Shown here piece after piece: positions 4,780-23,947 of a DNA stretch of 25,180 nt (the stretch's first letter is position 1; every line of letters begins with the position of its first letter). Source of the stretch: Verrucomicrobiia bacterium. Its GTDB lineage: Bacteria; Verrucomicrobiota; Verrucomicrobiia; Methylacidiphilales; CALFVM01. Below the pieces are notes generated by a model. That model saw only the letters and a program-made list of their open reading frames with translations, had not been told where the DNA came from and ran no database searches. The stretch lies in NCBI GenBank assembly GCA_046719555.1, contig JBDNCR010000001.1, positions 1 through 25,180 of the forward strand, written 5' to 3'. A program made the translations under genes and the position numbers.

Positions 4780-4786
4780 CCGCGCC

Positions 4787-5842
4787 ATGGAATCGTTACG
4801 GGACGATGATTTGGATTGGCCGTATGCGCGGGCGCGGTTGTGGACGGGAATTGTATCGATCGGGTTTAATTTGGGGTTGGTCTGGGCGTTGTGGTGGTGG
4901 GTGGGGGGGCAGGCGTGGGCCTCGACGGTTCCGACGCCGCTGACGGCGGTGGTGATCATGGCGGGGGTCTTTATTGGCATCGCGCTGGTGAACCTGCCCC
5001 TGGATTGGGTGACGGGCTATTGGGTTGAACGTCATTATGGGCGGGGCACCAGGAAGATGGGAGCGTGGCTGGGGAATTGGGTGAGCGGGATGAGCGGGTT
5101 GCTGCTGATCCAGGTTTTGGGAGGGATGTTGTTCGGGGCCTGGCTGTTTAATTATCCGTTTGCCGGCGCGGTGTTGGTGCTGTTGCCGGGGATTTATGTG
5201 GGGTTGAAGATCTGGCAGTTTCATTGGATTCCGGCCCGGTTGAAGCGTCCGGCCGAGTGGAAGCCGGGTTATGCGGAGGGGGTGCGAGCGGAATTGAAGC
5301 GGATGGGGGGCAGTTGGCCGGAGGATTTGTATTTGTATCGGGCAGAAGACCCGACGTTGGTGAATGGGGGGCGGGTTGGGATGGGAACCCACACACGGTT
5401 GATGGTGAGTGATGCATGTCAAGAGCACTTAACCCCAAGGGAGCTGGCCCTTCTGATCCACCGGGAGGAGGGTCTGGATCGGGCGAACAGTGTGGGGCGC
5501 AACTTGGATCTGAGCATGCTTTGGGTGTTGGCTGGGATTCTTGGGTTGATCGCTTGGGTGGGGAGCTGGGGTTGGGTTGGGTGGAGCACCTGGTTTTTTG
5601 CGCTGGCTTGGATGACGACGTGGCATTGGCTGGGGTTGTTTGTTTTGCCGTGGTTGGCGCGGCGAGAGGTGTTGTTTGGGGACCGGTGGCTGGCGCGGAA
5701 TGGATCGTCGAAGGAGGAGGTCCGGGCGTTGGTGACAAAGTTGCAGGCGTTGAACCGGACCGATCGTGAATTACCTCCGGTGACCGAGGCGGTGTTTCAT
5801 CCGATTCCGAGTTTACAGACCCGATTAAGGAACCTCACATGA
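4787..5842 (+). CDS. Ste24/M48-like integral membrane protein with degenerate zinc site (probable pseudo-peptidase), 351 aa
   Basis: Multiple TM segments. Ste24-like blocks NLPLDWVTGYWVERHYG, LYLYRAEDPTLVNGGRVGMGTHTRLMVSD, HLTPRELALLIHREEGL (in place of L.PEE..AVLAHELGH), ARREVLFGDRW (in place of SR..E..AD.F) and HPIPSLQTRLRNL. Confidence 0.75.
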   Translation: MESLRDDDLDWPYARARLWTGIVSIGFNLGLVWALWWWVGGQAWASTVPTPLTAVVIMAGVFIGIALVNLPLDWVTGYWVERHYGRGTRKMGAWLGNWVSGMSGLLLIQVLGGMLFGAWLFNYPFAGAVLVLLPGIYVGLKIWQFHWIPARLKRPAEWKPGYAEGVRAELKRMGGSWPEDLYLYRAEDPTLVNGGRVGMGTHTRLMVSDACQEHLTPRELALLIHREEGLDRANSVGRNLDLSMLWVLAGILGLIAWVGSWGWVGWSTWFFALAWMTTWHWLGLFVLPWLARREVLFGDRWLARNGSSKEEVRALVTKLQALNRTDRELPPVTEAVFHPIPSLQTRLRNLT

Positions 5843-5972: not shown

Positions 5973-6638
5973 ATGGAGGCGCCGGTGATTTCGTGTCCGC
6001 GTTGTCCGGCCCTCCCGGCAGGACTGGCTGAGGCGGCCCGGCTGCTGGCGGGCCGGTCGTCGTGTCGGTTTGGTCAGCCTTGGGCCGAGGCAGTGGAGGG
6101 GCGGTTCCGTCCAGGATCGGTGGCGTTGGCGTGGGATGGGGATCAGTTGGGGGTGTGGGCCGATTTGGACGATGACGATGTGTTCAACGAGGGTTCCGAT
6201 TCGACTCAACCGTTGTGGGCCTTGGGTGATGTGTTTGAGATGTTTCTGCGTCCGTTGCCTGGGGAACGGTATGTGGAACTTCATGTGACGCCGGAGAACG
6301 TGCAGTTGCGGCTGGCTTTTCCGTCCGAGTTGTTTTTCTGGCGGGAGGCGATGTTTTATGGGCGCAAGCCTTGGGTATGGAACCATGCTTTGGGCGAAGA
6401 GGCGTTCGGGTCGGAGGCGAGCCGACGGGACGGGGGCTGGCAGGTGTGGGCGCGGATTCCGTGGGCGACGTTGACCGGCGGAACGGTTCCGGGGGTGGGC
6501 GAGGTCTGGTCAGGGTGTTTCTGTCGCTACGATGCGACGCGGGGGGAAACCGAGCCGGTGCTGTCGACGACCGGGGCGCATCGGCGGAGGATGTTTCATG
6601 ATCAGCGGGGATGGAACCGGATTGAGTTTGAGGGCTGA
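5973..6638 (+). CDS. Carbohydrate-binding family 9-like (CBM9/DOMON-like) domain protein
   Basis: WDGDQLGVWADLDD, LWALGDVFEMFLRP, YVELHVTPEN, WQVWARIPW and W..CFCRYD resemble the CBM9-like beta-sandwich pattern. SD GGAG lies just upstream of the ATG. No signal peptide. Confidence 0.65.
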   Translation: MEAPVISCPRCPALPAGLAEAARLLAGRSSCRFGQPWAEAVEGRFRPGSVALAWDGDQLGVWADLDDDDVFNEGSDSTQPLWALGDVFEMFLRPLPGERYVELHVTPENVQLRLAFPSELFFWREAMFYGRKPWVWNHALGEEAFGSEASRRDGGWQVWARIPWATLTGGTVPGVGEVWSGCFCRYDATRGETEPVLSTTGAHRRRMFHDQRGWNRIEFEG

Positions 6639-8899: not shown

Positions 8900-9175
8900 A
8901 TGAAAAAAATTCTTCTGGCGTTTGTTCTGTGCTTTTCCCCCAGCCTTTGGGCCGATGTGTATTTCGGGCCTGCATCGTCTTCCGGCACCTTTCGCGGTGA
9001 GATTACGGCGATTGAACCTGGGCGGGAGTCGATTACGGTTCGCTCGGCAGAGAACACGGTGAAGATGTTTCACGTTCCGGCGAATCGGATTGGTCGATAT
9101 CAGACGGGGCAGGTGGTGACGGTTTCCTACGAGGAGGCTTACGCCTGGCCTTTGCGGACGCGTTCGATCCGCTGA
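8900..9175 (+). CDS. Small secreted protein, probable OB-fold (DUF1344/CusF-like pattern)
   Basis: Sec signal [18 protein letters not shown]|D. The mature part [17 protein letters not shown]...F.V....[14 protein letters not shown] follows the G.I..ID.....ITL....L..GxxVxVxY OB-fold pattern. Family assignment is by eye only. Confidence 0.65.
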
Positions 9176-11373
9176 GGGTGGGGTTGGAGGCGGACCGCCC
9201 CGCATTTGTAGGCGGGTTGACGTGAATGGGGATCGACGATCCATGGGGTCAGCTGGTTGGCCTGCTGATCGTGCATGGGGATAAAGACGTGCCCCGGCGG
9301 GACGGTGGGGGTGACGCCGGCCCAGCCGGTGATGGAGCCCCGTGGCGAGTGGACGGTGAGGGGGTCACCGTCGGCGATGTGGGCAGCCTTGGCGTCGGTG
9401 GGATGGATCTCGATCCGAAGGCGGGAGGGATGAAGTTTGCGGAGGATGGCGGATTTCTCGGTTCGGCTCCCGGTGTGCCACTGGGAGGAGCTGCCGCGTC
9501 CGGTGAGCAGCCAGAGGGGGAAATCGGGGCTGGGCGTTTCTGGAGCAGGTGCGGGCGGGTCGAAGATCAGGCGGGCTTGGCCATCGGGGTGATAGAAGCG
9601 ACGATCTTGGAACAGGCGACGTTCTTGTTTGGAGGAATCGGGGAGGGGTGTGGCCGGGTAGGGCCATTGAATGCCGCCAAGCTCTTCGAGGTGGGCATAG
9701 TCGCGGATGCCGGTGATGTCGCAGGGTTGCCCGGCACTGCATTGTTTGAGGAGTTGGAACACCGCTTCGGGGGTGGTCCAACGGGTGAACAGGTGTCCGC
9801 AGCCCCAGGCATCGGCGAGGGCTCGGAAGATACGGAAATCGGAGAGGGCCTGGCCGGGAGGGCGGCGGACGGGACGGATGACGCCGATGCGGCGTTCGGA
9901 GTTGATGAAGGTTCCTTCTTTTTCGCCCCAACCGGCGGCGGGCAGGTAGAGATCGGCGCCTTGCGCAGTTTCCGTGGTGGGATACATGTCCTGAACCACG
10001 AGAAAGTCGAGTTGCTCCCGCAGACGGTGGAAGCGGTTCTGGTGAATCCAAGAGTGGGCGGGATTGGTCGCGATGATCCACAGGGCGCGGATGCGGCCTG
10101 CTTCAACGGCTTCGAGGATTTGATCGTAGGCCAGGCTGTTCTGATCGGGGATGCGGGCGGGGTCGATGTCGAGGATGCGGGCGATTTTGTCGCGGTGGGC
10201 GGGGTTGGTGAAGTCGTGGCCGCCGAGGAGGTTGGTGGTGTTGGAGAAAAGGCGGGAGCCCATGGCATTGCACTGGCCGGTGATGGAGTTGGCACCGGTG
10301 CCGGGCTGGCCGATGTTGCCGGTGATGAGGGCGAGGTTGATGATGGCCTGGGCGGTTCGGGTGGCTTGGTGGCTTTGATTGACGCCCATGGTCCACCAGA
10401 AGGAAATTCGTTGGCCGGAGGTGATGAGGGCGGCGAAGCGTTCGTAGGCGGCGGGGTCCAGCCCGGTTTCGGCCAGGACCCGATCGGGAGTGAAGTCGCG
10501 GGTGAAGGTTTCATAGGCGTCCAGGCCGTGGGCGTAGGTGGCGACGGTGGTCCGGTTGACCGCGCCACGGGCAAACGCTTCGCGAGCTAGCCCATAGAAG
10601 AGAGTGAGATCGGATTTCGGCCGTGCCGGGAGGTGAAGAGTCGAGGCGCAGGCGGTTTCGGTGCGTCGGGGATCGATGACGACAATTTCCGGGTTGCGGC
10701 GGTTCCGCATGACCCGCTGCCACATGATGGGATGGGCGATGCAGGGGTTGGCGCCGATGAAGACGAGGACATCGCTCTGTTCGAAATCAGCGTAGGTGAA
10801 CGGGGGTGCGTCGAAGCCGAAGGATTGTTTGTAAGCCGTAACGGCGGTGGCCATGCATTGGCGGGTGTTGCCATCGCCGTGCAGCATGCCCATGCCGAAT
10901 TTGGCTAAAGCGCCAAGGAAGGCCATCTCTTCGCAAACGATTTGCCCGGTGGAAAGAAAAGCGGCCGCATGGGGACCGTGGCGCGATTGAACGGAGCGGA
11001 TTCTGGAGGAGAATTCCTTGAGGGCTTCCGGCCAGGAAAGAGGACGGGTTATTTTGCCCCGCCGAAGCAACGGAGTGGTGCCGCGATCGGGGGCCTCGAG
11101 TGGGGCGAGGGCTTCCCAACCTTTGGGACAGGCCATGCCGAGGTTGACTGGATAGTGTGCGTCCGGGGTGAGGTTGACGGCACGGCCTTCGCGGAGATGG
11201 AGGGTGAGATTGCAGCCGGTGGAGCAGAAGCCACAGACCGAGCCGGTGACCGCGTCGGGCTGGTTGCGGAAGGGAACTTGTCCGAGTCCGAAACGGCCTG
11301 GCGTGCGCACCAACTCGGCCGTGAGCACGCCGTCCCATTCGCGCAGGGTCGGTTGGGGAAGTTTGAATTTCAT
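9139..11373 (-). CDS. nasA: Assimilatory-type nitrate reductase catalytic subunit (Mo-bisPGD, one [4Fe-4S]), 744 aa
   Basis: CGFCSTGC...CPKG N-terminal Fe-S motif, [11 protein letters not shown] (Mo-ligand Cys region of NasA/NarB/NapA), [29 protein letters not shown] and QWHTGSRT. No twin-arginine signal. Start at 11373 is supported by an ATGA overlap with the upstream gene; 11625 is an extension in the ORF track. Confidence 0.92.
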
Positions 11374-12860
11374 GATCCGGGCATTTTGGTGGCGACTCCG
11401 CTTTTGAAGTAGAGCCAGCGTTCGATCAGTTCGCCGAGAAGGGCCAGCAGCAGGGCGGCAGGGAGGGAGAGGAAAAAGAGAGGAATCGCCATCGCACCGA
11501 TCAGGAAACGGGCCAGGGTCCAACGGCGCAGAGGGCCGCGCAGCAGCAGCGCGGAGCGTTGTCGGTCGGTGAGGGTTGGAGACTGGGCATCTGAATTTTG
11601 AAGGGAAATCATGCGGGCTTCCCATGCGAGTTTCAAAATCAGAAGGGCGGGCAGCGCGGCGGGCAGGGCGAAGAGGGCGGTGGTCCCGAAGAAGCGGAGG
11701 AAGGTGCGTGAGCCGCGCCAGACCTGGCGGTGGGTGTCGTGATAGACCATGGCCGAGCAGAAGACACCGAGGATCCCGGTGACGATGGCGGCGGTGAGGG
11801 CGGCAGGAACGACCCAGGGTGGGGTCGGTGCGGGAGAGAAAGGCAAGGCAACTTCAAGGCCAAGGGTGGCGGTGGAGGCTGCGAGAAAGGTGCCAAGGGC
11901 GATGATTTCACGGCTGAGCCAGGAGGTGCGCCAGCCGAGAAAGGCGCGCCAGGCTTTGAGGGGCTGGCCGAGGTGAAGGATGCTGGCGGCGAGGCCGAGA
12001 TGGATGAGGACAACGGCGGCGATGAGCCAGGCAAGGGGTGAAGCTTGGAAGGTGGCGGCGATGAGAAGGCCGAGCCCGGTTTGGGTGAAAACGAGCATGA
12101 TGACGAGCGGCCCGTGACCTGGCTGAACGGTTGGTGCGGCGTGGTCCGCGGCACGGAGGGATTCGGCTAAAGGTTTGGTTGAAACGTAACGGGTGGTGGG
12201 GATGGTGATGCGGGGATCGGGGGTGTGGGGCAGAAAGACGCCTTCGGCGGCGCGGGCGCGGGCCGTGGAGGTGCGGATGACGCGGATGGCGATGGCCGAG
12301 GTCGGGCAGGCCTGAACGCAGGCCGGGGCTTCCCCTGCGGCAAGGCGTCCGTGGCACATGTCGCATTTGCGCACGATGCCGAGGCGGTCGGAATACTTCG
12401 GCACCTCGTAGGGACATTTCATGATGCAGTATTGGCAGCCGATGCACTGGTCATCGAGGTGGCGAACCACCCCGGTGACGGAATCTTTTTCGTAGGCGAG
12501 GACGGGGCAGCCGTGGGCGCAGCCAGGGTCGGCGCAGTGGTGGCAGGCCGTGGTGACGGTCTGGACGACAGCCTGGCCGTTGGCATGGCCTTGGAGGCGG
12601 CCGACTTCGCGCCAGCTTTCCTGGTCATCGAGGCCGTTGAGACTGTGACAGGCGGCGACGCAGGCTTTGCAGCCGGTGCATTTGTCGAGATCGACTTCGA
12701 AGGCGTATTGCTCGCCGGGACCTGGTGCGGAAAGAGGAATGAGATCGCGGTAGGTGCCCGCGAGGGCGTGGTCGCGGCGGTCGTGTTCGCGGGCGAAGCG
12801 AGCAACGGGGGTAAGGGTGCGCTGCTCGGAGAGAAGTTCGTCGATGAGGGTGGGACTCAT
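11370..12860 (-). CDS. Fused DmsB-like 4x[4Fe-4S] ferredoxin plus DmsC/YnfH (NrfD superfamily) membrane anchor, 496 aa
   Basis: Sixteen Cys in four groups ([44 protein letters not shown]), followed by ~7-8 TM segments with DmsC hallmarks [34 protein letters not shown] and [14 protein letters not shown] overlaps at both ends. Confidence 0.9.
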
Positions 12861-14548
12861 CCGAGCATTTCCTGGAGTTGGCCCACTTCGTGACGGGTGG
12901 TGAATTGTTGAAAAGACTCGCCGTCCTGCCGTTTGGCCAGATAGAGGCGCAGGAGTTTTTCGATGTGGCGTTTGGCCTGCTCGAAGGGCATGGCCTGGAA
13001 GAGTTGTCTTCCAATCGCACGGTTCTGGCCGAAGCCGCCCCCAACGCAAACGTGGTAGGCCTCCTGGCCATCACGGGTTTTGGCCCCGAGCAATCCGATG
13101 TCGCCCATGTAATGTTGGGCACAGGAGTGGGGGCAGCCGGTGAAGTGGATGTTGACGGGCTGGTCGAGGGAAAGACGCTGGTCGAGGTAACGAGCGAGTT
13201 CCAAGGCGTGGCCCTTGGTGTCGGTCGCGGCGTATTTGCAGTAACGGTTGCCGGTGCAGGCGATGATGCCGCTGGTCAGGTTGGATTGCCGCCAGTCCAA
13301 TCCGACTTTGATCAGCGCTTTTTTTACGGTTTCGACAAAGCCGTTGGGGATATTGGGAATGACGACGTTCTGCCAGACAGTCAGGCGCAGGTCACCGGAA
13401 CCGTAGTTTTCCGCCAGCTCGGCCAGACGATGAAGTTGCTTGGGGGTGATCTGGCCGATGGGCAACGCCACGCCGATGAAAGTCAGTCCTTCCTGCTTCT
13501 GTCGGTGAACGCCGATGTGGCTGTGGGGCAGCTCCTGGCAGGGGTAGGCGAGGGGAGCTTCTTCGAGCGCGGAGCGGGTCAACGGATGGCCGAGCAGTTT
13601 TTCGGTTTCCTCCCGATAACGTTCGAGGCTCCATTGTTCGAGCAGGTGTTTGAGACGGGCTTTTTTGCGGTCGCCGCGGTTGCCGTTGCGGATGAAGACA
13701 CGGATCAGGGCCACGATCACCCGGACAATTTCTTCCGGGGGCACGAGGACGCCGAGATCGCGGGCGAAGGCCTTGTGACCGGTGGCACCGCCGAGGGCGA
13801 TGCGGAAGCGGACTTCGGAGCCGACGCGGACGGCCTTGACGCCGATGTCATTGGTGTCCTCGACCGAGCCGATGAGTCCGCCGCCGTCAAAGGCGATGTT
13901 GAACTTGCGCGGCAGGTCGTAGAATTCGCGATGGGAGAGGATGAACTGGGAAAGTTTCTGCACGTAGGGCGTGCAGTCGATCAACTCGAGGGGATCGACT
14001 CCGGCGGTCGGATTGGCGGTGATGTTGCGGATGTTGTCGGCACCCGCCCCTTGGGTGTGGAGGCCGATGGCTTGCACTCGGCGCAGAAACTCCGGCGTAT
14101 CACGGGGGGCGATCAGACGGATTTGCAGGTTGGCGCGGGTGGTGACTTGGATGTAACCGGTGGTGAGCTGTGCGGCAAGGTCGGCGAGTTCATGGGCTTG
14201 GTAGGATTTGAGTTGTCCGCCGGGGATGCGGAGGCGGGCCATGAAGGCGTCTTTGACCGGGGTGAGATAAAACAAGCCGTGCCACTTGAAGCGGAAGATC
14301 TCCTCTTTATCGGGCGCTTGGTCGGCCCGCGCATTTTCTTCAATCCGATAATAGGAATCCAGCGGGTGCTCTTCTTTTTTGATCCGTTCTTCGGCAATGA
14401 GGATGGGTGGTTCCGCGGCATCGGGGGCCGGGGCCAAATCGCCGAAGCGGATGCCTTGGTCCTCAAGGCCTTTGAAGAAGCCCTGCAAATAGGACCTCTG
14501 GTCGGGCGCGAGATCTTTGCCGAGGATGGAAGTGGGAATGGGGGTCAT
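12857..14548 (-). CDS. nirA: Siroheme/[4Fe-4S] nitrite reductase, NirA family
   Basis: FKWHGLF, FMARLRIPGG, TTRANLQIR, GADNIRN, LPRKFNIA (nitrite-type Asn rather than the SiR RKFK), and siroheme/Fe-S ligands ACTGNRYC and TGCPHSCAQH. Confidence 0.92.
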   Translation of the reverse strand: MTPIPTSILGKDLAPDQRSYLQGFFKGLEDQGIRFGDLAPAPDAAEPPILIAEERIKKEEHPLDSYYRIEENARADQAPDKEEIFRFKWHGLFYLTPVKDAFMARLRIPGGQLKSYQAHELADLAAQLTTGYIQVTTRANLQIRLIAPRDTPEFLRRVQAIGLHTQGAGADNIRNITANPTAGVDPLELIDCTPYVQKLSQFILSHREFYDLPRKFNIAFDGGGLIGSVEDTNDIGVKAVRVGSEVRFRIALGGATGHKAFARDLGVLVPPEEIVRVIVALIRVFIRNGNRGDRKKARLKHLLEQWSLERYREETEKLLGHPLTRSALEEAPLAYPCQELPHSHIGVHRQKQEGLTFIGVALPIGQITPKQLHRLAELAENYGSGDLRLTVWQNVVIPNIPNGFVETVKKALIKVGLDWRQSNLTSGIIACTGNRYCKYAATDTKGHALELARYLDQRLSLDQPVNIHFTGCPHSCAQHYMGDIGLLGAKTRDGQEAYHVCVGGGFGQNRAIGRQLFQAMPFEQAKRHIEKLLRLYLAKRQDGESFQQFTTRHEVGQLQEMLG

Positions 14549-14568
14549 GGGGAGGAGTGTTTTGACGG

Positions 14569-16215
14569 TTAATACACGTCGCGCTGATAACGCTTTTGCG
14601 CTTGGAGAGTGTGGAGGAAGTCGGAGGCTTGGTCTGGGGAGAGACCGCCGACCTGGACGGCAATTTGGTGGAGCGCGGCTTCGACATCCTTGGCCATCCG
14701 CTTGGCATCTCCGCAGACGTAGAAATGGCCGCCCTCTTGGAGCCAGGACCAGAGTTCGGCGGCCTGTTCGAGCATCCGGTTTTGCACGTAGATTTTCTCC
14801 TGCTGATCGCGAGAAAAGGCGGTGTCTAGGCGGGTGAGAAGACCGTCTTGCTGCATGGCTTGGAGTTCGTCGCGGTAGAGGAAGTCGCAGGCGGCTTTTT
14901 GGTCGCCAAAGAAGAGCCAGTTCTTTCCTGGGGCGCCGATGGCGCGCCGTTCTTGGAGGAAGGCACGGAAAGGGGCGATGCCGGTGCCGGGGCCGACCAT
15001 GATCATGGGTCGGGAGGGGTCGGTGGGAGGTTTGAAGTTGGGCGAGCGGTGGACAAAGATGGGGAGGGGAGTGTCGGGACCGACCCGTTCAGCGAGGAAG
15101 GTGGAGCAGACGCCGGAGCAGAGGCGGCCGTTGAGTTGGTAGCGGACGACACCGACGGTGAGGTGAACTTCGCCGGGATGGGCTTTGGGGCTGGAGGAGA
15201 TGGAGTAGAGGCGGGGCTGGAGTTTTTTAAGGGGGGCAACCAGATCGGTCGCTGCGATGTGACCTGTGGGAAGCTCGGCCCGAAAGTGGCCGAGGTCGAG
15301 GTGCTCGGTGAGGGCTTTGCGCAAGGGGAAGTCCCCGATTTTGGGGAGGGTCACGGCTTCTTCACCATCGAGCCCGGCGGCATCCAGAATGTCCTGAACC
15401 AAGGCCGGATCATTCTGCGGAAGCACGCCGAGGGCATCGCCGACCTCGTAGGTGAGCCCGGAATCGCCGAGGAGGATTTCAAGGTGGCGGGTGTCTTTGG
15501 TAGAGCCGGGTCCGTTGAGGCGACGGTTGGTTTTGAGTCGGGCGAGGTAGGGATGAGTTTTGGAGAAGGAGGCCGGGGGTGGAGAGGCGGTGGGCGTGAG
15601 TTGGGGTGTTTGGGCGCCGACTCCGAGGGTCTGGATGAAGCCACGGAACCATTCGGCGGCGGGTGTTTCGTAGTCCACATCGCAATCGGTGCGGGGATAG
15701 ATCCGTTTGGCGCCGAGTTCTTCGAGCCTTTGGTCGAGGCGCTTACCGGCTTCGCAGAAGTGGACGTAGTTGGTGTCGCCGAGGGCCAGAACGGAATATT
15801 CGAGATGGGCGAGGGAGGGGGCGGAACCGTTCCGGATGAAATTCCAGAAGGCCTGAGCGTTGTCGGGCATGTCCCCATCGCCGTAGGTGCTGGTGATGAT
15901 GGCTAGCCGGGATTCTTTGGAGAAGTCGATCTTGGTGAATTCGTCCAGGCTGTGAACGCGGGAGTCGAAGCCGACGGCGCGGGCTTGTTGTGAGAATTTG
16001 CGGGCGAGTTGTTCGGAGGAGCCGGTTTGGGAGCCGAAAAGGAACAGCAGCGGCCCGTGGACCGGCGGCGGGGGGGAGTCCGCCGCCGACCGTGCGGTGC
16101 CGATGTGCCCTGCGGCCAGCAGGCCCGCCAAGTAGCCGTTGATCCAGGCCCGTTGTTCGGGGGAAAAGGGTGCGGTTTCGGGAATGAACGCAACGTCGGT
16201 TGGCGGTGGGGTCAT
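14569..16215 (-). CDS. cysJ: CysJ-like NADPH diflavin (FMN/FAD) reductase; probable electron donor to NirA, 548 aa
   Basis: Flavodoxin motifs FGSQTGSSE, TSTYGDGDMPDNA and LGDTNYVHFC; FAD/NADPH motifs RLYSISSS, GVCSTFL, MVGPGTGIAPFRAF, TAFSRDQ, YVCGDAKRMAKDV and RYQRDVY. The symbol denotes the family, not a proven sulfite role. A GTG at 16221 is an alternative start. Confidence 0.92.
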   Translation of the reverse strand: MTPPPTDVAFIPETAPFSPEQRAWINGYLAGLLAAGHIGTARSAADSPPPPVHGPLLFLFGSQTGSSEQLARKFSQQARAVGFDSRVHSLDEFTKIDFSKESRLAIITSTYGDGDMPDNAQAFWNFIRNGSAPSLAHLEYSVLALGDTNYVHFCEAGKRLDQRLEELGAKRIYPRTDCDVDYETPAAEWFRGFIQTLGVGAQTPQLTPTASPPPASFSKTHPYLARLKTNRRLNGPGSTKDTRHLEILLGDSGLTYEVGDALGVLPQNDPALVQDILDAAGLDGEEAVTLPKIGDFPLRKALTEHLDLGHFRAELPTGHIAATDLVAPLKKLQPRLYSISSSPKAHPGEVHLTVGVVRYQLNGRLCSGVCSTFLAERVGPDTPLPIFVHRSPNFKPPTDPSRPMIMVGPGTGIAPFRAFLQERRAIGAPGKNWLFFGDQKAACDFLYRDELQAMQQDGLLTRLDTAFSRDQQEKIYVQNRMLEQAAELWSWLQEGGHFYVCGDAKRMAKDVEAALHQIAVQVGGLSPDQASDFLHTLQAQKRYQRDVY

Positions 16216-16221
16216 GGGCAC

Positions 16222-17703
16222 CTAGAAGCTGATGAGGGCTTGGACGTAGATGAAATCGGCGTCGGCGGTTTGGCCGGTTGGGGCGGTGTCGGAGATGTAA
16301 CCGCCGGTGAAGAAGTGGGCGTAACCGGCTTCAAGCTTGAGCCATTGATTGAGGTCATACCAGAGGGTGAGGTCGATCTCGGACCCGACAAAGCCGGAGG
16401 GATTGCGGTTGAGGGCGTTGGCGTAGCGGGGGGCTCCGCCGACGGGTTGTTGGGCGGCGAAGCGCCAGACGTCCCGGGTTTCGGCCAACCAGAAAAGGTG
16501 GTAGTCGAGTTTGATCCGGAGTTTCGGCGTTGGTTGGACGGTGAGGCCGATGGCCGGGTTGTGCAGGTTTTGCCAGGAGAACCGATCCATGTAGCCGTAG
16601 AATTTGTGGTTGGTGGGGAAGAGATTTTGAAAGGTGTGGGAGATACCGTCGTTGGGGTCGCTGTCGCCTGAGCCGTAGTTGTACTCGAGGTGGAGCCGAG
16701 GTTTCCACGGGTGGGTGAAGGTGTAACCGCCCTCGATGTGGAGAGCCCCAGCGAGAAGGTCTTGCCGGTTGATGTTGATGGGATTTCCGCCAACGAGGGG
16801 GCCGAAGCCTTGGGGGTTGGAGAGGCCACCGATTTGGAAAGCAAATTCGGCGTTGGCGTCCCAGGGTCCGAAGGCCCCCTTTTTTGATTTCAGGCGGGTG
16901 CCGAGGGTGGCGTAGTCTCCGGCGGGGGCGGTGTTGCCATCGACCCGTTCGTCCCGTCCGGTGAAGGTGGTGGAGGGGGTGACTTGGGATTTGCTGCGCC
17001 AGAGCAGGAAGAGGTCGGAATCGAAGGAGGGGATGAGGTCGGTGGTGGCGTAGAGGCCGGTGAAGAGGTCGGTGGTGTCGGGATTGTTGAATCCTTCGGT
17101 TCGGTGGAGGACGACGTAGCCGGCGAAGGCATCGAGGGTGAAGCCGCCGTTTTGGTAGCTCAGGCGGAGGGCGTCGAAGGTTCGGGCATTGTTGTCCCAC
17201 TCAAAGGCACCGATCAGCCGCTCGTCACCGTAGGAGAGGATTTGCCGCCCGATTTTGAATCTGAGGGGCTGCCCCCAGAGGTTATCGAGTTGGAGGTAGC
17301 CCTGACGCAGGGCGATGGGGCTATCGTTGGAGATGAATTCGCGGGTGGCATCGTTCTGGGGGTTGTCAAAGAAGGTGCGGGAGTCTTGGAGTTGGGCGTA
17401 GGCGGTGAAGTTCTCAACGGGCTGGAACTTGAGTCCGAGGCGGAGCCGTTGGAGGAGCGCCTGGGAATCGCGGACGTCGGTGCTGTCGGAAAAATCGATC
17501 CAGTTGCTTCGCCACTCAAATCGTTCGCGGAACTGGAAGTCGAGGGTGAACTGATGATGGTAAAAGGTGATGGGTTGGCCGGGTTGCCAAGGGTCTTGGC
17601 GGAGTTTGGCTTGGGCCGAGGTTGGGCGGCCGGTGAGGGCGGGGGATCCGGCTTGGACGATGGTGGGGAGGAGGAGGGCGAGGAGGTAGAGATGAGGTTT
17701 CAT
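16222..17703 (-). CDS. Alginate export (AlgE-like) family outer-membrane beta-barrel; putative nitrate/nitrite porin
   Basis: Sec signal [88 protein letters not shown], and a C-terminal beta-signal YVQALISF. Embedded in the nitrate operon. Confidence 0.85.
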
Positions 17704-18602
17704 GGTGAAGCGGTTGAGGATGAGGTGGCGGCGGCCCGGGGTGGGGGAGCGGGGGCATGGAAGGGGATGATCTTGGGTCCGGGGTTGGAGGGCCGGTTGA
17801 CCAGGGGCCGGTCATGGCCGCGGAGGTGGGAAAGGTGATGGAGGAAGTGGAGGAGATGTTCGCGGTAAGTGTAGAAGCGGGGATCTTCGAGGAGGGCGTG
17901 TCGGTCGCGAGGTCGGGGGAAGTCGATGGGGAGGATGTCGCCGACTTCGGCCTCGGGTCCGTTGGTCATCATGACGACGCGATCGGAGAGATAGACGGCT
18001 TCATCGACGTCATGGGTCACCATGAGGGTGGTGATTTGGAAGCGGTTCCAGACTTCAAGGAGAACTTGTTGGAGTTCGTATTTGGTGAGTTTGTCGAGCA
18101 TGCCGAACGGCTCGTCGAGGAGTAGGATTTTGGGGGAAAGGGCAAAGGCGCGGGCGATGCCAACCCGCTGGCGCATGCCCTGGGAGAGTTCGGCCGGGCG
18201 TTGGTGCATGGCGTCGGCGAGGCCAACCACGGTGAGGTAGTATTCCGCGATTTGTCGGCGCTCGGCTTTGGGGGCGGTGAAGAAGACCTGATCCACGGCG
18301 AGCCTGACGTTTTGGTAGGCGGTCATCCAGGGGAGGAGGCAAGGGGCCTGGAAGACCACGCCGCGGTCTGGCCCGGGCTCATCCAGTTGGCGACCGTGCA
18401 GGAAGATGCCTCCGGAGGAGGCTTGTTGGAGCCCGGCGACCATGGAGAGCACGGTCGATTTGCCACAGCCGGAGTGGCCGATAAGGCAGACGAACTCGCC
18501 AGGGGCGATGTCGAGGTCAAAGTCTTTGACCACGGTGCAGGGGCCACTTGGGGTGGGGTAGACTTTATGGAGTCGAGAGAGCTGAAGGACGGGACGGGTC
18601 AT
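17700..18602 (-). CDS. nrtD: Nitrate/nitrite ABC transporter ATP-binding protein (NrtD-like), 300 aa
   Basis: Walker [15 protein letters not shown]-loop, LSQGMRQR signature, [11 protein letters not shown] and VTHDVDEA. Start at 18602 is supported by an ATGA overlap with the upstream ATPase stop. Confidence 0.9.
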
Positions 18603-19522
18603 GGCGCAGTTTGAATCGGTTCCTGGCGGCGTTCCGCCCGGCGACGTGGACCGCGTCGGGGGAGCCACCGGTCAACGAGGGTGAGGTGAGAAATGTCTTC
18701 GGGTTCGATGGCGGGGAGGGTCAGTTTTTGGTGAATGATGGAACGGCCTTGGTCCCGCTGGCGGAGGAGATAATCGAGGATGTGAAGGCGCATGGAGCGG
18801 AAGCGGGGGTCGTGGTTGAGCGCGGTCCGGTCGCGGGGCCGGTCGAGGTCCACCCGGACTTCAGGACCGAGGGAGGCGGCTGGTCCGAGAGAGAGGGGGA
18901 TGACGCGGTCGGCGAGCAGGAGGGCCTCATCCACGTCGTTGGTGATGAGGAGGACGGTTTTTTGTTCTTCTTGCCAGATGCGGCAGAGTTCGTCCTGGAG
19001 GGTGGACCGGGTCAGGGCGTCGAGCGCGCCGAGCGGTTCGTCCAAGAGCAGGACCTCTGGATTCATGGCCAGGCCGCGGGCCAGAGCGACCCGCTGGCGC
19101 ATGCCGCCGGAGAGTTGGCTGGGGCGCCGATCGCGGGCGTGGGCTAGCCCAACCATGCGGATGTATCGATCGATCCGATCGGCCCGGGCGGCGGCGGGCT
19201 CGGTTTGAAAGATTTGATCGACGGCCAGGGCAATGTTGCCGTGGACGGTCAGCCAAGGCAGGAGGGAGTAGTTCTGAAAGACGACGGCTCGTTCAGGGGA
19301 TGGGCCTTGGATCGGACGCCCTCGAAAGAGAACCTGGCCGTCGGTGGGTGTTTCGAGTCCTGCGAGAAGATTGATGAGGGTGGTTTTTCCGGAGCCGGAA
19401 TAGCCGACGATGGCGACGAACTCACCGGTCTGAACGGCAAGGTTGATGCCTCGCAACACTTCGTTGGCGGCGGAGCCTGAACCGAAAGTTTTTCCAGCCT
19501 GGCGAAATTCGAGAAGGGCCAT
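18599..19522 (-). CDS. nrtC: Nitrate/nitrite ABC transporter ATP-binding protein (NrtC-like ATPase domain only)
   Basis: [44 protein letters not shown] and ITNDVDEA (H-loop His replaced by Asn). Lacks the cyanobacterial C-terminal NrtA-like domain. Confidence 0.88.
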
Positions 19523-19528
19523 ATCCGA

Positions 19529-20533
19529 TTACCGTTGGTTGGGTTCGAAGGTGACGAGGGTTTGGAGGGCCAGCATCAGGCGGTCCAAAGCAAAGCCGAT
19601 AACGCCAATGGTGAAGATGGCCACCATGATCAGGGACAGACTCTGGGAGCTGCCGTTTTGGAACATGTCCCAGACGAATTTTCCGAGGCCAGGGTTCTGG
19701 GCCAGCATTTCGGCAGCGATGAGCACCATCCAGCCTACGCCGAGGGACAATCGGAGGCCGGTGAAGATGTAGGGCAGAGCGGCGGGCAGGACGATTTTGA
19801 AGATTTTGGCTGGCCAACTTAGGCGGAGCACGCGGGCGACGTTGAGGTAATCGGTGTCGATGGAGGCGACGCCAACGGCGGTGTTGATCAGGGTTGGCCA
19901 TAGGCAGCAGAGGGCCACGGTGATGGCGGAGGTGAGGAAGGCTTTGGTAAAAAGGGGATCGGGCGGGTTGTAAAGGGAGCCGACCAGGATCATGACGATC
20001 GGTAACCAGGCCAGGGGTGAGACGGGGCGGAAGATTTGGATGAACGGGTTTAAAGCGGTGTTCACGGCGCGGCTTAGTCCGCAGAGGATCCCGAGGGGCA
20101 CGGCGATACAGGAGGCGATGAGGAATCCGGTGAAAACGGTCCTCAGACTGGTGCCGATTTGGTCGAAGTAGGTGGGTCGTCCAGAGTAACGTCGTTCGGG
20201 AAAGGTTTGACCGGGATTCTCCGCAAGAAAGCGTTCCCGGCGTTCGGCTTGACGTTGGTAGAATTGGGCTTCCCGTTCTCGTTCGGCCCGGTGATCCTGG
20301 TAAAGACCGGCGGCGGCTTTCCAGACGTCGGAGGGTCCTGGCATGGTGGCGAAACCGACGTCGAGTCCGGCGAGAAAGTGGGACCAAAGTCCGAGGAAGA
20401 TGGCGAGGGCCAGCAGCGGTAAGCCGATCTGGGACAGAAGCGTTCTGGCGAAGTCGGCCGGAGGTCGGACGGTGAGGAGGCGATCGAGACCGTTGGGGAG
20501 GAGGCCGAGGTTGAAGGTGGGTTTGCGGTTCAT
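19529..20533 (-). CDS. nrtB: Nitrate/nitrite ABC transporter permease
   Basis: [42 protein letters not shown]-like [30 protein letters not shown] and [13 protein letters not shown]. Confidence 0.92.
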
Positions 20534-20539
20534 GGCGGG

Positions 20540-21853
20540 TTAGTTTTGGTGACCGATGCGGTGGAGCTTGAGGTAGGCGTTGGGCTGGCGTCCGTCGTAA
20601 GGAATGCCGTCAATGAACCCGTGATCGACCGGTTTGAAGCCGTCGGTTTCCGGGATGTCCGAGGCTTTCATTTTGCCCTCGGCAACCAGCGCGCGTGCGG
20701 CCTGGAGGTAGATGTCGGGACGATAGACTTTGCGGGCCTGTTCGTGGTACCAGGCGTCGGATTTGGGTTCAGGAATTTGGCCCCACCGCCGCATTTGGGT
20801 CAGGAACCAGACCGCGTCGCTGTAAAAAGGGTAGGTGGCGTGGTAGCGGAAGAAGACGTTGAAGTCGGGCATGTCCCGTTTGTCGCCTTTTTCAAACTCG
20901 AAGGTGCCGGTCATGCTGTTGGCGATGACCGCTTCATCCGCGCCAACATATTCGGGGCGGGAGAGGATTTTTGCGGCTTCTCTCCGGTTGGCCAGGCTGG
21001 CGTCGAGCCATTGCCCGGCGCGGAGCAAGGCTTTGATGACGGCGATGTGGGTTTGCGGGTTCCGCTCGGCCCAGTCGGCGGTGACGCCGAAGACTTTTTC
21101 CGGGTTGTTTTTCCAGATTTGTTCGTTGGTGACGACGGGCACGCCGATGCCTCTGAAGACGGCGGCCTGGTTCCAGGGTTCGCCGACGCAGTAGCCCTGG
21201 ATGGTGCCTTGAGCCAAGGTGGCGGGCATTTGCGGGGGAGGGGTGACGGAGATGAGGACGTCGGCTTGGGTGTTGCCATTGATGTCCTGGGGGGTGTAGA
21301 AGCCGGGATGAATGCCGGCGGCGGCGAGCCAATAGCGGAGTTCATAGTTGTGGGTGGAGACGGGGAAGACCACGCCCAGGTTCATGGGTTTGCCGGCGGC
21401 GGCCCTGGCTTCGACGACCGGTTTGAGCGAGGTCGCGGTGATGGGGTGTTTCGGTTTTTTTTGTCGGAGGTTGGGATCGTGTTTTTTCATTTCCTCCCAG
21501 ACCTGGTTGGAAACGGTGATGGCGTTGCCATTGAGGTCCATGCTGTAGGCGGTGATGATGTGGGCTTGGGAGCCGATGCCGATGGTGGCGGCGATGGGTT
21601 GGCCTGCCAGCATGTGGGCACCATCGAGTTCGCCGCTGATGACGCGATCGAGGAGGACTTTCCAATTGGCCTGGGCTTCGATGGTCACGTGGAGGCCTTC
21701 ATCTTCAAAGAACCCTTTTTCGTGGGCGATGACGATGGGGGCACAATCGGTCAGTTTGATGAAGCCGAGCTTGAGGTCGGGTTTCTCCAAGGCGGCAGCG
21801 GAACTGGCGGCGAGGAGGGTGAGGACTTGGGGGAGGAGGTGGAGGGCGGTCAT
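20540..21853 (-). CDS. nrtA: Periplasmic nitrate/nitrite-binding protein, CmpA/NrtA family
   Basis: Sec signal (…LLAASSAAA|LE), [40 protein letters not shown] (His), PPPQM, CVGEPWN and NNPEKVF (Lys; nitrate-type rather than the CmpA Glu). Confidence 0.93.
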
Positions 21854-22950
21854 GGGCGGGCGTTTTGGGGTTGTGGTTGAGGTTGGGGAAAGAGGGCTTG
21901 GCGATAGAGATCTTGGCGGAAGACCTGCGTTAACATGGGGCCGGGAGTCGGAGGTTCAGGGGGTAGGAGGCCCGCGGCCTGCATTTGTTGGAAGAGCAGG
22001 AGCGCCTTATCCGGAGAGGGATCGTTGGCGGCGGAACGGAAGAAGTGATGGAAGGCGGAGGGTTCGGCTTGTTGGCCGTTGCCTCGGTCAAAGGGGCCAA
22101 GGAGGGCTGGCTTGAGGATCTGGGGCGCGAGGTTGAGGTATTCCTTGCGGGCGAGGAGGTTGACCAATTCGGCCCGGCCTTCCGGGGTTTCGCACTGGCG
22201 ACAGGCGCGATCGAGGGCGCGGATGAGGGCGAGATGTTCGTCCGGGCGATTGACGGCAAATGCTCCGCGGACCAGGAGAATTTTCTCAGGATGGAGAGGG
22301 ATGATTTCGGAGCTTAGGGCGGGGCACCATCCGATTTGGGTCCGAACCGCTAGGGTGTTCCAGGGTTCTCCGACACAGAATCCGTCGATGGCGCCTGAGC
22401 CGAGGCTGCGCGCCATTTGTGGTGGGGGGAGGGTGACGATGCGGACATCACGTTCGGGGCGGAGGCCGGCTTGGGCGAGCCAGCGGCGGAGGAGGATGTG
22501 ATGCATGGAGTGGCTGGCAACGATGCCGAGGGTCATGCGGCGCGGGCGCTCGGACCGAGCCAGTTGGCCGAAGGTGGTGGCGTCGGTAACCCCTTTTTGG
22601 CGGAGGGCCCGGGAAAGGGTGATGGCGTTGCCCTGGAGGTTGAGGACAAAGGCGGTGAGGACGTCGGCCATCGGGCCGGCGAGGCCAAGCTTGATGGTGA
22701 AGGCCATGGGGGCCAGGGCTTGGGCGGCATCGATTTCACCAAAGACGAGACGCTCGCGGATGCTGGCCCAGCCGACTTCACGGACGAGCCGGAGGTGGAG
22801 TCCCTCGTCTCGGAAGAAGCCCCATTCCTGGGCGGCAACCACGGGGGCGCAGTCGGTGAGGGGAATGAAACCGAGGGCGAGGGTGGGGCGGCTGGTGCGC
22901 GGAGGGCGGCGGTGAGGGCCTGTTGATTTTTGGGCAACGGTGGCGGGCAT
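21850..22950 (-). CDS. nasS: Cytoplasmic NrtA-like nitrate/nitrite sensor (NasS-like), 366 aa
   Basis: [71 protein letters not shown] and HPEKIL. No hydrophobic signal peptide. First gene of the operon, with an ATGA overlap to nrtA. Start is placed at ATG 22950; the 23046 start comes from the palindrome. Confidence 0.8.
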
Positions 22951-22962
22951 GGCATGGAGGGG

Positions 22963-22977
22963 GCACCTGCCGTGCCA
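22963..22977 (-). promoter_or_regulatory. Candidate sigma54 (-24/-12) promoter of the nitrate operon
   Basis: The minus strand reads TGGCACGGCAGGTGC, i.e. GG-N10-GC, close to the consensus TGGCACG-N4-TTGC. Predicted +1 is about 22951, next to the nasS-like ATG at 22950. Confidence 0.6.
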
Positions 22978-23023
22978 TGGGGGTGGTGGAGGAGGTATTG
23001 ATTGCTTGAAATGATTTCCGGTT

Positions 23024-23046
23024 ATGCATGAATGGTGTTCATACAT
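23024..23046. promoter_or_regulatory. LysR-type T-N11-A dyad operator
   Basis: ATGcATGAA-TGGTG-TTCATaCAT. The core ATGAA-N5-TTCAT (23028-23042) has T23029-N11-A23041, lies in the divergent intergenic region and abuts the LysR start. Confidence 0.6.
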
Positions 23047-23947
23047 GGATGCGCCCTTGGAAATTCGCCAACTCCGGGCGTTTGTGAGTGTTGCGCGGAG
23101 CGGGAGTTTTACCCGGGCGGCGGCGCGGTTGAATCTGACGCAGTCGGCGGTGAGCCATGCGCTGCGGGGTTTGCAGGATCAGTTGGGCTGTCCGCTTTTA
23201 TACAAAAGTGGCCGCCGTGTGCATTTATCGCCACAAGGGGAGGTGCTTCTGCGGACCGCGGAGCGGGTGCTGGCGGAGGTGGATGGGATCCCGCAACAGT
23301 TGCGGGCCTTGGAGCGGCTGGACCGGGGCCGATTGCGGGTGGGGTGCAGCGCGGCCGGGTCGCAATTTATTTTGCCGCCGGTGTTGCGGGAGTTCAAAGA
23401 ATGTTTTCCCGGGTTTGATCTGGCGGTCCGTCCGGGAGACACCCCGGAAATTCAGGCGATGTTGTTGGCGGGTGAGCTGGATTTGGCGATTGCCCTGCGT
23501 CTGGAGGAGATGGGACCGTTGGATGGGCGAGAGATTTTTGTCGATGAGCTTTCATTTTTGGTCAGCCCGATGCATCCGTGGGCGGGCCGGAGTCGGGTGA
23601 GCCGAAAACAGATGGAAGGCCAAACGTATATTGTTTATCAGCGAGGGAGTGTGACGTTTCGGCTGGTGGAGGAGTATTTTTTGAAGTTGGGGGTGCGGCC
23701 CGGTTCGTTGATTGAGCTGGGAAGCATGGAGGCGATTAAGGAGTTGGTGAAGCTTGGGTTGGGCATCGGGGTGACGGCGTCGTGGATTGCGCGGGCGGAG
23801 CTGGAGGCTGGGTCGATTTTAACGGTGGAGCTGCGCCCGAAGATTCGCCGACGTTGGATGGTGTTGTGGATGAAGGGACGCCCCTTGAATTTGGCGGAGG
23901 AGACGTTTGTCGGATTGAGTGAATCGGTCGGGGCCAATGTGGTGTGA
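23045..23947 (+). CDS. LysR-family transcriptional regulator (CysL/CmpR-like effector domain), 300 aa
   Basis: wHTH LEIRQLRAFVSVARSGSFTRAAARLNLTQSAVSHALRGLQDQLG, GRLRVG, LLAGELDLAI and GSMEAIKELVKLGLGI. Divergent from the nitrate operon. Start at ATG 23045 (MDAPLEIRQL). Confidence 0.95.
   Translation: MDAPLEIRQLRAFVSVARSGSFTRAAARLNLTQSAVSHALRGLQDQLGCPLLYKSGRRVHLSPQGEVLLRTAERVLAEVDGIPQQLRALERLDRGRLRVGCSAAGSQFILPPVLREFKECFPGFDLAVRPGDTPEIQAMLLAGELDLAIALRLEEMGPLDGREIFVDELSFLVSPMHPWAGRSRVSRKQMEGQTYIVYQRGSVTFRLVEEYFLKLGVRPGSLIELGSMEAIKELVKLGLGIGVTASWIARAELEAGSILTVELRPKIRRRWMVLWMKGRPLNLAEETFVGLSESVGANVV

Follow-up and report, generated by a model that had tools for sequence, protein, structure and literature searches.

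The 25,180-nucleotide (nt) stretch of DNA analyzed here (the window) is the entire contig C1 of a Verrucomicrobiia genome (GenBank assembly GCA_046719555.1) that comprises 2.13 Mb in 402 contigs and is 74.5% complete. The closest relative of its genes is a metagenome-assembled genome (MAG) of the Methylacidiphilales, the remaining relatives being nearly all Verrucomicrobiota with some Planctomycetota. Ten minus-strand open reading frames (ORFs), designated G1 to G10, fill positions 9139–22950 and encode the putative nitrate assimilation system that is the subject of this account: an NrtA-like cytoplasmic protein, an ATP-binding cassette (ABC) nitrate importer, an outer-membrane barrel, a CysJ-like diflavin reductase, the nitrite reductase NirA, a fusion of an iron–sulfur (FeS) protein with a DmsC-type membrane anchor, and the nitrate reductase NasA (Table 1). 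This parts list had been proposed in an earlier reading made from the sequence alone (the sequence-only reading), and the Pfam and NCBIfam domains agree with it.

Table 1. Genes and elements of the putative nitrate assimilation operon and its upstream border (aa, amino acids; FMN, flavin mononucleotide; FAD, flavin adenine dinucleotide; Mo-bisPGD, molybdenum bis(pyranopterin guanine dinucleotide); E, expectation value)
Feature	Coordinates	Strand	Characteristics
G1, NrtA-like cytoplasmic protein	21853..22950	−	366 aa; no signal peptide; NMT1_2 E 2.7e-72
G2, NrtA, periplasmic nitrate-binding protein	20543..21853	−	NMT1_2 E 5.5e-97; signal peptide, hydrophobic N-terminus
G3, NrtB permease	19532..20533	−	TIGR01183 ntrB E 3.5e-52; BPD_transp_1
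G4, nitrate ABC ATPase, short, no regulatory domain	18602..19522	−	TIGR01184 ntrCD 304 vs 291.8 bits
G5, second short nitrate ABC ATPase	17703..18602	−	TIGR01184 330 bits, above cut-off; ATG 18602 start in ATGA overlap
G6, Alginate_exp barrel, candidate nitrate/nitrite porin	16225..17703	−	PF13372 E 2.4e-57
G7, CysJ-like NADPH diflavin reductase	14572..16215	−	FMN, FAD and NADPH domains; CysJ N-terminal tag
G8, NirA	12860..14548	−	siroheme/[4Fe-4S] nitrite reductase; N-terminal tag like that of G7
G9, FeS/DmsC fusion	11373..12860	−	four-cluster [4Fe-4S] part, residues ~50-200; eight-helix DmsC/NrfD-type quinol anchor, ~249-486
G10, NasA	9142..11373	−	744 aa cytoplasmic Mo-bisPGD nitrate reductase; N-terminal [4Fe-4S] site; Pfam
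LysR-family regulator	23045..23947	+	divergent; NCBIfam LysR families only, CynR/CbbR among the top, none above cut-off
Sigma54-type −24/−12 element TGGCAC-N5-GTGC	22963..22977	−	ends 12 nt before the G1 ATG

The sequence-only reading had also taken the cluster for a single operon, and the ten co-oriented genes, joined by five ATGA start/stop overlaps (21850–21853, 18599–18602, 17700–17703, 12857–12860, and 11370–11373) and short gaps, bear this out. Its list of junctions holds for the overlaps and for gaps of 6–20 nt (6 nt at G2/G3 and at G3/G4, 20 nt at G7/G8), except that the gap between G6 and G7 may be nil, measuring 6 nt with the ATG start at 16215 and 0 nt with the GTG start at 16221. 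Longer starts at 23046 (G1), 18668 (G5), 13049 (G9), and 11625 (G10) were rejected because homologues and the ATGA overlaps favor the shorter ones. The junctions leave no space for pairs of an internal promoter and a terminator, and a terminator scan returned 10 matches compared with 14.2 in shuffled sequence, that is, fewer than shuffled. The operon is bounded on its 5′ side by the divergent LysR gene and on its 3′ side by a small convergent ORF (8900–9175, plus strand). The latter encodes 91 residues with a signal peptide, covers the last 37 nt of nasA, and has no NCBIfam match.

In textbook accounts of bacterial nitrate assimilation, the electron donor is an NAD(P)H diaphorase, a ferredoxin, or a flavodoxin. 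That these donors are absent from the window had been claimed and is confirmed: no Pyr_redox_2 domain of the NirB/NasB type was found among the window ORFs scanned with Pfam, and in a six-frame search ferredoxin-type CxxCxxCxxxC motifs were confined to the G9 fusion gene. Equally correct was the statement that siroheme and molybdenum cofactor biosynthesis genes are missing, none being found in the Pfam scan of the window ORFs. The description of the cluster as self-contained stands for uptake and reduction; cofactor synthesis and the ultimate reductant must come from outside it. What sets the window apart is that all three non-canonical modules, namely the FeS/DmsC fusion, the CysJ-like reductase, and the Alginate_exp barrel, are found in one tight operon.

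The catalytic subunit at the end of the operon, G10, matches the Molybdop_Fe4S4, Molybdopterin, and Molydop_binding families of Pfam, all three above cut-off, and its best match in the Protein Data Bank (PDB) is NapA (2jio, 6e-95). The cluster ligands C47, C50, C54, and C82 are invariant among homologues, and so, in 36 of them, is the motif RQCMATA at residues 171–177, which holds the molybdenum-ligand cysteine. We take this motif to be the Cys ligand of the Nap/Nas type, as opposed to the Cys/SeCys-His of formate dehydrogenases (the NapA/FdhF rule). A formate dehydrogenase was considered for G10, whose score on the Fdh-alpha model nearly equals that on the NasA model, and was rejected on the strength of the Nap/Nas-type ligand motif. 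The N-terminus features neither a twin-arginine motif nor a hydrophobic region. Since G10 falls far short of the curated equivalog cut-offs for NasA and NasC (423 vs 1000 bits for NasA_Halo and 376 vs 1100 bits for NasC), it is, by these scores, a distinct subfamily outside the curated models.

The adjoining G9 joins Fer4_11 and DmsC domains (PF04976, E 6e-12) in one protein. Its N-terminal half carries 16 cysteines in four ferredoxin-type groups, all invariant in 42 sequences, scores on the DmsB model TIGR02951 with an E of 2.2e-35 (below cut-off), and finds FdnH, ArrB, and PsrB as fold matches. The C-terminal half resembles PsrC (2vpw_C; Foldseek template modeling (TM) score 0.64) and ActC in fold, and the AlphaFold2 (AF2) model, with a predicted local distance difference test (pLDDT) of 88, contains eight membrane helices. 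Relatives of G9 match the full DmsC profile from position 7 to 273, and hhalign related G9 itself to Escherichia coli DmsC with a probability of 97.5. This alignment pairs S293, H296, S313, and E318 of G9 with S62, H65, S82, and E87 of DmsC. It is precisely these four DmsC residues (Ser62, His65, Ser82, and Glu87) that make up its quinol site, and cited mutants of His65 and Glu87 block quinol oxidation or binding (PMC8076601). In G9, H296, S313, and E318 are invariant across 42 homologues. This retention of the DmsC quinol-site residues in G9 makes quinol the probable electron donor for nitrate reduction by NasA.

The orientation of this anchor appears to be the reverse of what its family names would imply. 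G9 has neither a twin-arginine translocation (Tat) nor a general secretory (Sec) signal, and, averaged over 42 homologues, the loops on the FeS side contain 3.5, 2.3, and 3.3 lysines plus arginines while those on the far side contain 0.7, 0.1, 0, and 0. The missing export signal together with this distribution of positive charge puts the predicted location of the FeS domain and the quinol site of G9 in the cytoplasm. Judged as a periplasm-facing member of the Dms/Psr/Nrf kind, G9 therefore fails on both counts, having no export signal and the opposite charge asymmetry. An inverted anchor has precedent in the orientation proposed for SoeC (PMC8076601).

Structure prediction joins the two proteins. 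A complex of NasA with residues 1–235 of G9 scored 0.79 compared with 0.01 for the best control, a value reached by 58 of 80 solved complexes and by 2 of 110 mismatched pairs. Agreement among the three runs is 77% of contacts or better, with a partner pLDDT of 79 or higher. The tightest predicted contacts bring residues 79–87 of NasA, including the ligand Cys82, against residues 62–70 and 184–188 of G9, which hold the ligands of its first cluster. The model supports docking in the canonical alpha–beta wiring; as alpha–beta complexes of this kind have been solved, the result demonstrates likeness to them rather than proof. Within this genome G9 is the sole DmsC-type gene, and the one molybdopterin-family match besides NasA is a fragment on the short contig C179, which may belong to NuoG.

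The pairing of G9 with NasA recurs widely. Eighty related loci were collected by way of G9, mostly from Verrucomicrobiota and some from Planctomycetota, and all ten proteins were mapped onto them. In 72 of the 77 loci with 1.5 kb or more downstream, nasA comes next after G9, and of 71 pairs 44 show a 4-nt overlap between the two genes. Among the 56 loci with at least 6 kb upstream, NirA is encoded in 51, the CysJ-like reductase in 49 (always with NirA), the ATPases in 33–37, and the G1 protein in 22. The Alginate_exp barrel was found by tblastn in at least 25 of the 56, a lower bound, as divergent family members were missed in loci L012 and L020. Locus L010 has a ten-gene order identical to that of the window, and the same cluster is present in cultured Opitutaceae, among them Oleiharenicola lentus (L035) and the isolate EW11 (L033).

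Other loci depart from this order in instructive ways. In L020, a LysR gene, G1, a major facilitator superfamily (MFS) transporter, an Alginate_exp barrel, and an 834-residue NirB precede G9 and NasA. L047 has an MFS transporter, G9, and NasA; L075 has NrtABCD, an MFS transporter, a PP2C-kinase protein, G9, and NasA; NirA and the CysJ-like reductase are not in the available flanks of either. In L057, from a Luteolibacter MAG, NirA is accompanied by a stand-alone flavodoxin of 196 residues (9363–9950) instead of the CysJ-like reductase, again with G9 and NasA. The architecture is thus a common modular design in which the G9–NasA pair is constant and the nitrite reductase module varies among NirA plus CysJ-like reductase, NirA plus flavodoxin, and NirB. 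Since the pair persists when the nitrite reductase changes, G9 rather than the CysJ-like protein would be the donor proper to NasA. The additional protein of L075 (8085–9827, from a Rubritalea MAG), in which a protein phosphatase 2C (PP2C) domain is fused to a Ser/Thr kinase domain, lies between the MFS transporter and G9–nasA and is a possible phospho-regulator of nitrate uptake.

The sequence-only reading had expected a distribution of the Planctomycetota–Verrucomicrobiota–Chlamydiota type, and the gene-neighborhood survey did find the set in Verrucomicrobiota and Planctomycetota. At E ≤ 1e-30, relatives of G9 turn up in 43 of the 379 high-quality genomes sampled from the Verrucomicrobiota, and the family amounts to 734 clusters at 50% identity. 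Of 301 sampled Planctomycetota genomes 31 match G9, about 21 of them strongly. A second tier of FeS/DmsC-fusion relatives (36–42% identity, E 1e-50 to 1e-70), found in the Planctomycetota genomes G637, G537, G502, G641, G503, and G478, may serve other molybdoenzymes. No G9 relative was found in five small genomes of a sister family in the same order. Methylacidiphilum belongs to the order to which the nearest relative points, and its published strains are reported to use NasA together with NirBD (PMC6688271).

The constancy of the pair, and its company, bear on what the enzyme is for. Conceivably, G9–NasA could serve chiefly in dissimilation or redox balancing, as a heme-less miniature Nar that passes electrons from quinol to nitrate to get rid of surplus reductant and for which assimilation is secondary; its architecture is that of the respiratory complex iron–sulfur molybdoenzymes, its active site faces the cytoplasm as in NarGHI, and electron transfer from quinol to nitrate is, by the redox potentials, strongly exergonic. 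However, the pair always sits among assimilatory genes (nrtABCD or an MFS transporter, NirA or NirB), the sigma54-type promoter hints at nitrogen control, and a quinol site on the cytoplasmic (N) side without hemes would separate no charge and bring no energetic gain, so a chiefly dissimilatory role is very unlikely.

The second reductive step is assigned to G8. It passes the NirA-family model NF007126 (706 bits for a cut-off of 523), matches NIR_SIR and NIR_SIR_ferr of Pfam twice each, and has plant ferredoxin–nitrite reductases as its best PDB matches (1e-80); from these and the gene context its substrate would be nitrite rather than sulfite. Its partner G7 carries Flavodoxin, FAD_binding_1, and NAD_binding_1 domains in one chain, passes NF004859 (493 bits for a cut-off of 432), and aligns with E. 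coli CysJ throughout its length, including the N-terminal tag, at 39% identity; it stays below the CysJ equivalog cut-offs (TIGR01931, 589 vs 668 bits; NF008197, 509 vs 838). The likeness to CysJ raises the question of whether the two might constitute an assimilatory sulfite reductase that sits in a nitrate cluster by chance, to which the 589 bits of G7 on the cysJ model and its identity to CysJ lend some color, as does the match of G8, at 5e-60, to Mycobacterium tuberculosis "NirA", a sulfite reductase. Against this, G8 fails the CysI and Sir models and shares no more than 22% identity with CysI of E. coli, the plant enzymes are its closest solved relatives, relatives hold a separate second siroheme enzyme elsewhere, and in 49 of 56 loci the NirA/CysJ-like pair is accompanied by nasA and by nrt genes. 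A sulfite reductase was accordingly rejected on the NirA model score, the plant relatives, and the gene context, and we regard it as exceedingly improbable.

The two proteins are linked by more than adjacency. In related loci their genes often overlap, and they share an N-terminal tag, which reads APF(S/T)xEQRAWLNGF(L/F)AG on 53 of 62 CysJ-like proteins and F(S/T)xEQKxYLxGF(F/M)AG on at least 30 of 63 NirA proteins. The latter pattern search undercounts, as many nirA genes start at GTG with A or V before the Gln; in six NirA loci that it had missed, reading by eye recovered the tag in all six, behind a GTG start. The stand-alone flavodoxin of L057 carries the tag too. On G7 the tag aligns with residues 25–44 of E. 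coli CysJ, a segment that drives self-assembly of CysJ and has no counterpart in E. coli CysI. The genomes of four larger relatives each encode just one FAD_binding_1 protein with a frame that could accommodate an FMN domain, namely the copy in the cluster, and the second siroheme enzyme, elsewhere in the genome, adjoins no FAD_binding_1 gene of that length. Together, the shared tag, the co-occurrence, and the homology to CysJ lead us to read G7 and G8 as a tethered NADPH:nitrite reductase, the two being probably held together through their common tag in the manner of CysJ/CysI; on context and homology, electrons would pass from NADPH through the CysJ-like protein to NirA. Elsewhere in this genome, contig C262 (1759–2913, minus strand) encodes a second CysJ-like protein of ~400 aa with FAD/NADPH domains only (419 bits on NF004859), and paralogues with frames of similar length (394–456 aa) are found in four relatives away from the siroheme enzymes.

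With the tag in hand, two other electron routes can be weighed. In one, G9 would be a mere tether and FeS relay, NADPH would feed both NirA and NasA by way of the CysJ-like reductase, and the quinone site would be vestigial or an outlet for reverse overflow. Congruent with such a scheme, in most loci (41 junctions) the gene immediately preceding G9 is the CysJ-like one, docking of an FMN domain on an FeS protein is conceivable in principle, and a diflavin reductase fused to a nitrate reductase does exist in mycobacterial NasN (PMC7816997). Yet G9–NasA occurs without a CysJ-like gene in L020, where NirB stands instead, and in L047 and L075; the DmsC quinol-site residues have been retained unchanged in 42 homologues; and the shared tag ties the CysJ-like protein to NirA and not to G9 or NasA. 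We consider this scheme unlikely. In the other, NasA and NirA would depend on ferredoxin or flavodoxin as in cyanobacteria, with a soluble carrier encoded elsewhere and regenerated by the CysJ-like protein, leaving G9 some other role. NirA is indeed closest to ferredoxin–nitrite reductases, the gene set mirrors the cyanobacterial nirA-nrtABCD-narB operon with its LysR regulator (PMC10945777), and the incomplete genome leaves room for a carrier. It is countered by the lack of any ferredoxin motif in the window outside G9, the 4-nt overlap of G9 with nasA in 44 of 71 loci, the confident predicted FS0–FS1 interface, and the tag common to NirA and its flavoprotein, and it must be deemed quite improbable.

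Upstream of the reductases, the importer genes G2 to G5 are joined by the barrel G6. This protein has a signal peptide, a C-terminal Phe, and 18 strands in its AF2 model, whose best fold match is AlgE (3rbh; TM 0.73, E 1e-19); a sequence search of the PDB gave no match, and AlgE emerged from the fold search alone. This genome and the relatives G001 and G004 each have a single PF13372 gene, that of the barrel, and a member of the Alginate_exp family occurs in the MFS-based nitrate cluster of L020 as well. No alginate or polysaccharide genes are found in the window, and the barrel has nitrate genes as neighbors in at least 25 related loci.

How the operon might be controlled is suggested by its upstream end. 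The sequence-only reading had called G1 a sensor. It is indeed NrtA-like and cytoplasmic, and its homologues begin just ahead of a shared LxxGF motif, which supports the ATG at 22950; its best PDB match, however, is residues 264–607 of cyanobacterial NrtC, the cytoplasmic C-terminal regulatory domain of that protein (8w9m_C, E 1.4e-65, vs 6e-37 for NrtA, 2g29). G1 is unfused to an ATPase, a split form, and as both ATPases G4 and G5 are short, it looks like a split-off regulatory domain of NrtC. In cyanobacteria, this domain mediates the inhibition of NrtBCD with PII (PMC10945777). Its closeness to the NrtC domain means that G1 may gate the transporter instead of, or besides, acting as NasS does. 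The ANTAR partner family PF03861 gave no match in this genome or four relatives, and control genomes gave none either. The divergent LysR gene is found in 20 of 80 related loci and usually adjoins G1, so a transcriptional role for G1 is also possible; the LysR protein itself is a possible analogue of NtcB.

Between the two divergent genes, the sigma54-type element is the only match in the window, with a chance expectation of 0.22; at least one match arises in 19 of 100 shuffles, so the element is weak evidence alone. The same element, again 12 nt before the start codon, precedes the GTG start of nirA in four Opitutaceae loci (L006 at 6269, L021 at 6386, L031 at 6285, and L067 at 6193), and rpoN is present in this genome and four relatives. 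The element hints at nitrogen control, and its 12-nt spacing to the start codon suggests leaderless or near-leaderless transcripts. No Shine–Dalgarno sequence is obvious upstream of any of the ten genes. Farther out, at 22990–23030 (minus strand), lies a conserved A-rich box, AAAACAATTCA, followed by TGAT/TGAAT. It recurs in L006, L011, L013, L021, L031, and L067, where the distance to the sigma54-like element downstream is ~45 nt, in L021 as ATTCA-N5-TGAAT, and could be a LysR-type T-N11-A site or a site for an enhancer-binding protein.

By its logic, the closest known system is the cyanobacterial nirA-nrtABCD-narB operon with NtcB in Synechococcus and Synechocystis (PMC10945777). The two have in common the NrtABCD importer, NirA, a monomeric Mo-bisPGD enzyme of the Nas/NarB type, a LysR regulator, and an NrtA-like cytoplasmic regulatory domain. 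They differ in that cyanobacterial NirA and NarB use photosynthetic ferredoxin, whereas here the CysJ-like reductase and the FeS/DmsC fusion are provided in the operon; in addition, the regulatory domain is separate rather than fused to NrtC, and an outer-membrane barrel has been added.

For the G9–NasA pair, the closest architecture is that of SoeABC, the sulfite:quinone oxidoreductase of Allochromatium vinosum and Aquifex aeolicus, followed by DmsABC and PsrABC. Like SoeABC, the pair would combine a Mo-bisPGD enzyme and a four-cluster FeS protein with a heme-less anchor of the NrfD/DmsC type, facing the cytoplasm in inverted orientation with an N-side quinone site. SoeC shares His65, Ser82, and Glu87 with DmsC (PMC8076601), residues that correspond to H296, S313, and E318 of G9. 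The direction of flow would be opposite: Soe oxidizes sulfite and reduces quinone, whereas here electrons are expected to run from quinol to nitrate. G9 moreover fuses the FeS and anchor subunits, and its catalytic partner belongs to the Nas/Nap clade. With E. coli DmsABC and Thermus PsrABC, the pair has in common the four-cluster fold, the PsrC-fold anchor, and the quinol-site residues, and the docking predicted for it is of the canonical kind. Those enzymes are Tat-exported, periplasm-facing, three-subunit complexes of anaerobic respiration; G9–NasA, in contrast, has no Tat signal, the opposite charge asymmetry, a fusion of the B and C subunits, and an assimilatory context. When the sequence-only reading spoke of modules of DMSO/polysulfide respiration and alginate export, it had the families right, and these terms survive as names only, as the anchor appears inverted like SoeC and the barrel is an AlgE fold and nothing more.

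The remaining modules have relatives of their own. G7 and G8 come closest to CysJ/CysI of E. coli, a diflavin NADPH reductase with a siroheme/[4Fe-4S] hemoprotein; here, by contrast, the hemoprotein is of the NirA type and, unlike CysI of E. coli, bears the tag itself, and the context is assimilation of nitrate rather than sulfate. Mycobacterial NasN (MSMEG_4206) is described as a diflavin-containing NADPH nitrate reductase (Tan et al. 2020, cited in PMC7816997) and offers a precedent for a CysJ-type diflavin module giving NADPH electrons in bacterial nitrate assimilation. In NasN, diflavin module and nitrate reductase make up one fused protein; here the module stands by itself as a protein found with the nitrite reductase, and the nitrate reductase has a membrane FeS/quinol partner instead. 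AlgE of Pseudomonas aeruginosa (3rbh; PF13372) is of the same family and 18-strand fold as G6; the two are 13–15% identical, and G6 lies between nitrate transporter and reductase genes with no alginate genes near. A literature search with most subscription journals outside its reach found nothing linking a DmsC/NrfD anchor, a CysJ plus NirA pair, or an Alginate_exp porin to nitrate assimilation, and a 2021 review of the NrfD family lists no Nas complex and no fusion.

Assembled into a pathway, the parts would work as follows. Nitrate or nitrite would cross the outer membrane through the AlgE-fold barrel, and nitrate would be bound by NrtA and imported by NrtB with the two short ATPases. NasA would lie on the cytoplasmic face of the membrane, docked to the four-cluster FeS domain of G9, whose inverted DmsC-type anchor would oxidize menaquinol at a site on the cytoplasmic side; electrons would then run through the four clusters of G9 to the [4Fe-4S] cluster of NasA and on to its molybdenum center. 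Because G9 is heme-less and has its quinol site on the N side, this step should be electroneutral. NirA would reduce the resulting nitrite to ammonium with six electrons drawn from NADPH through the FAD and FMN of the CysJ-like reductase. G1 would sense cytoplasmic nitrate and then throttle the transporter, signal to the divergent LysR regulator, or do both.

We put at roughly 60% the probability that the ten genes constitute one nitrogen-regulated operon that takes nitrate from outside the cell to ammonium inside, with a quinol-fed NasA and an NADPH-fed NirA. Several points weigh against it. All gene functions have been read from sequence, gene context, and predicted structures. G9 of the window matches the DmsC profile over positions 9–162 only, and its count of eight helices depends on a model in which helices 5 and 6, and likewise 7 and 8, are joined by single residues. 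The predicted NasA–G9 complex may reflect memory of solved complexes of the FdnGH, PsrAB, and NarGH types. On the nitrite side, the nearest solved relatives of NirA are ferredoxin-dependent, and a genome three-quarters complete could encode a ferredoxin elsewhere as its donor. G6 as a nitrate/nitrite porin is an economical reading, with a candidate substrate taken from gene context. Finally, a LysR protein is not the usual activator of a sigma54 promoter, and the two assignments made here, of promoter and of regulator, are not easily reconciled.

The remainder of the window is given over to other functions. Housekeeping genes flank the operon, coding for ThiC, agmatine deiminase, a CN hydrolase, a CoaC-like flavoprotein, and guanylate kinase. 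Two plus-strand ORFs of 363 and 221 residues (4751–5842 and 5973–6638) have no Pfam match at E ≤ 1e-5, and the product of the first is a multi-helix membrane protein. The plus strand of the window has a GC skew, (G−C)/(G+C), of +0.27 that is independent of gene orientation, the nitrate operon being encoded on the C-rich strand. This skew is extreme throughout the genome: the length-weighted mean of its absolute value over the 402 contigs is 0.30, and it exceeds 0.15 in 85% of contigs.

Beyond this locus, the chances look about even that many Verrucomicrobiota and Planctomycetota use an undescribed class of nitrate assimilation enzyme, a cytoplasm-facing, heme-less, quinol-driven NasA complex with the build of a respiratory molybdoenzyme turned around, here accompanied by a tag-tethered NADPH nitrite reductase of the sulfite-reductase type and a nitrate porin. 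Both phyla are abundant in soil and freshwater. Since automatic annotation attaches the labels "DMSO reductase", "sulfite reductase", and "alginate export" to its parts, they would be overlooked or wrongly placed when pathways are reconstructed from metagenomes. The candidate porin would provide for passage across the outer membrane, a step of nitrate uptake so far without an assigned protein. With a quinol-fed NasA, one more donor route would join the textbook ones and link nitrogen assimilation to the condition of the respiratory chain. If this is true, nitrogen assimilation in these bacteria draws directly on the respiratory quinone pool, and the energetics and redox coupling of metagenomic nasA genes need to be reread.

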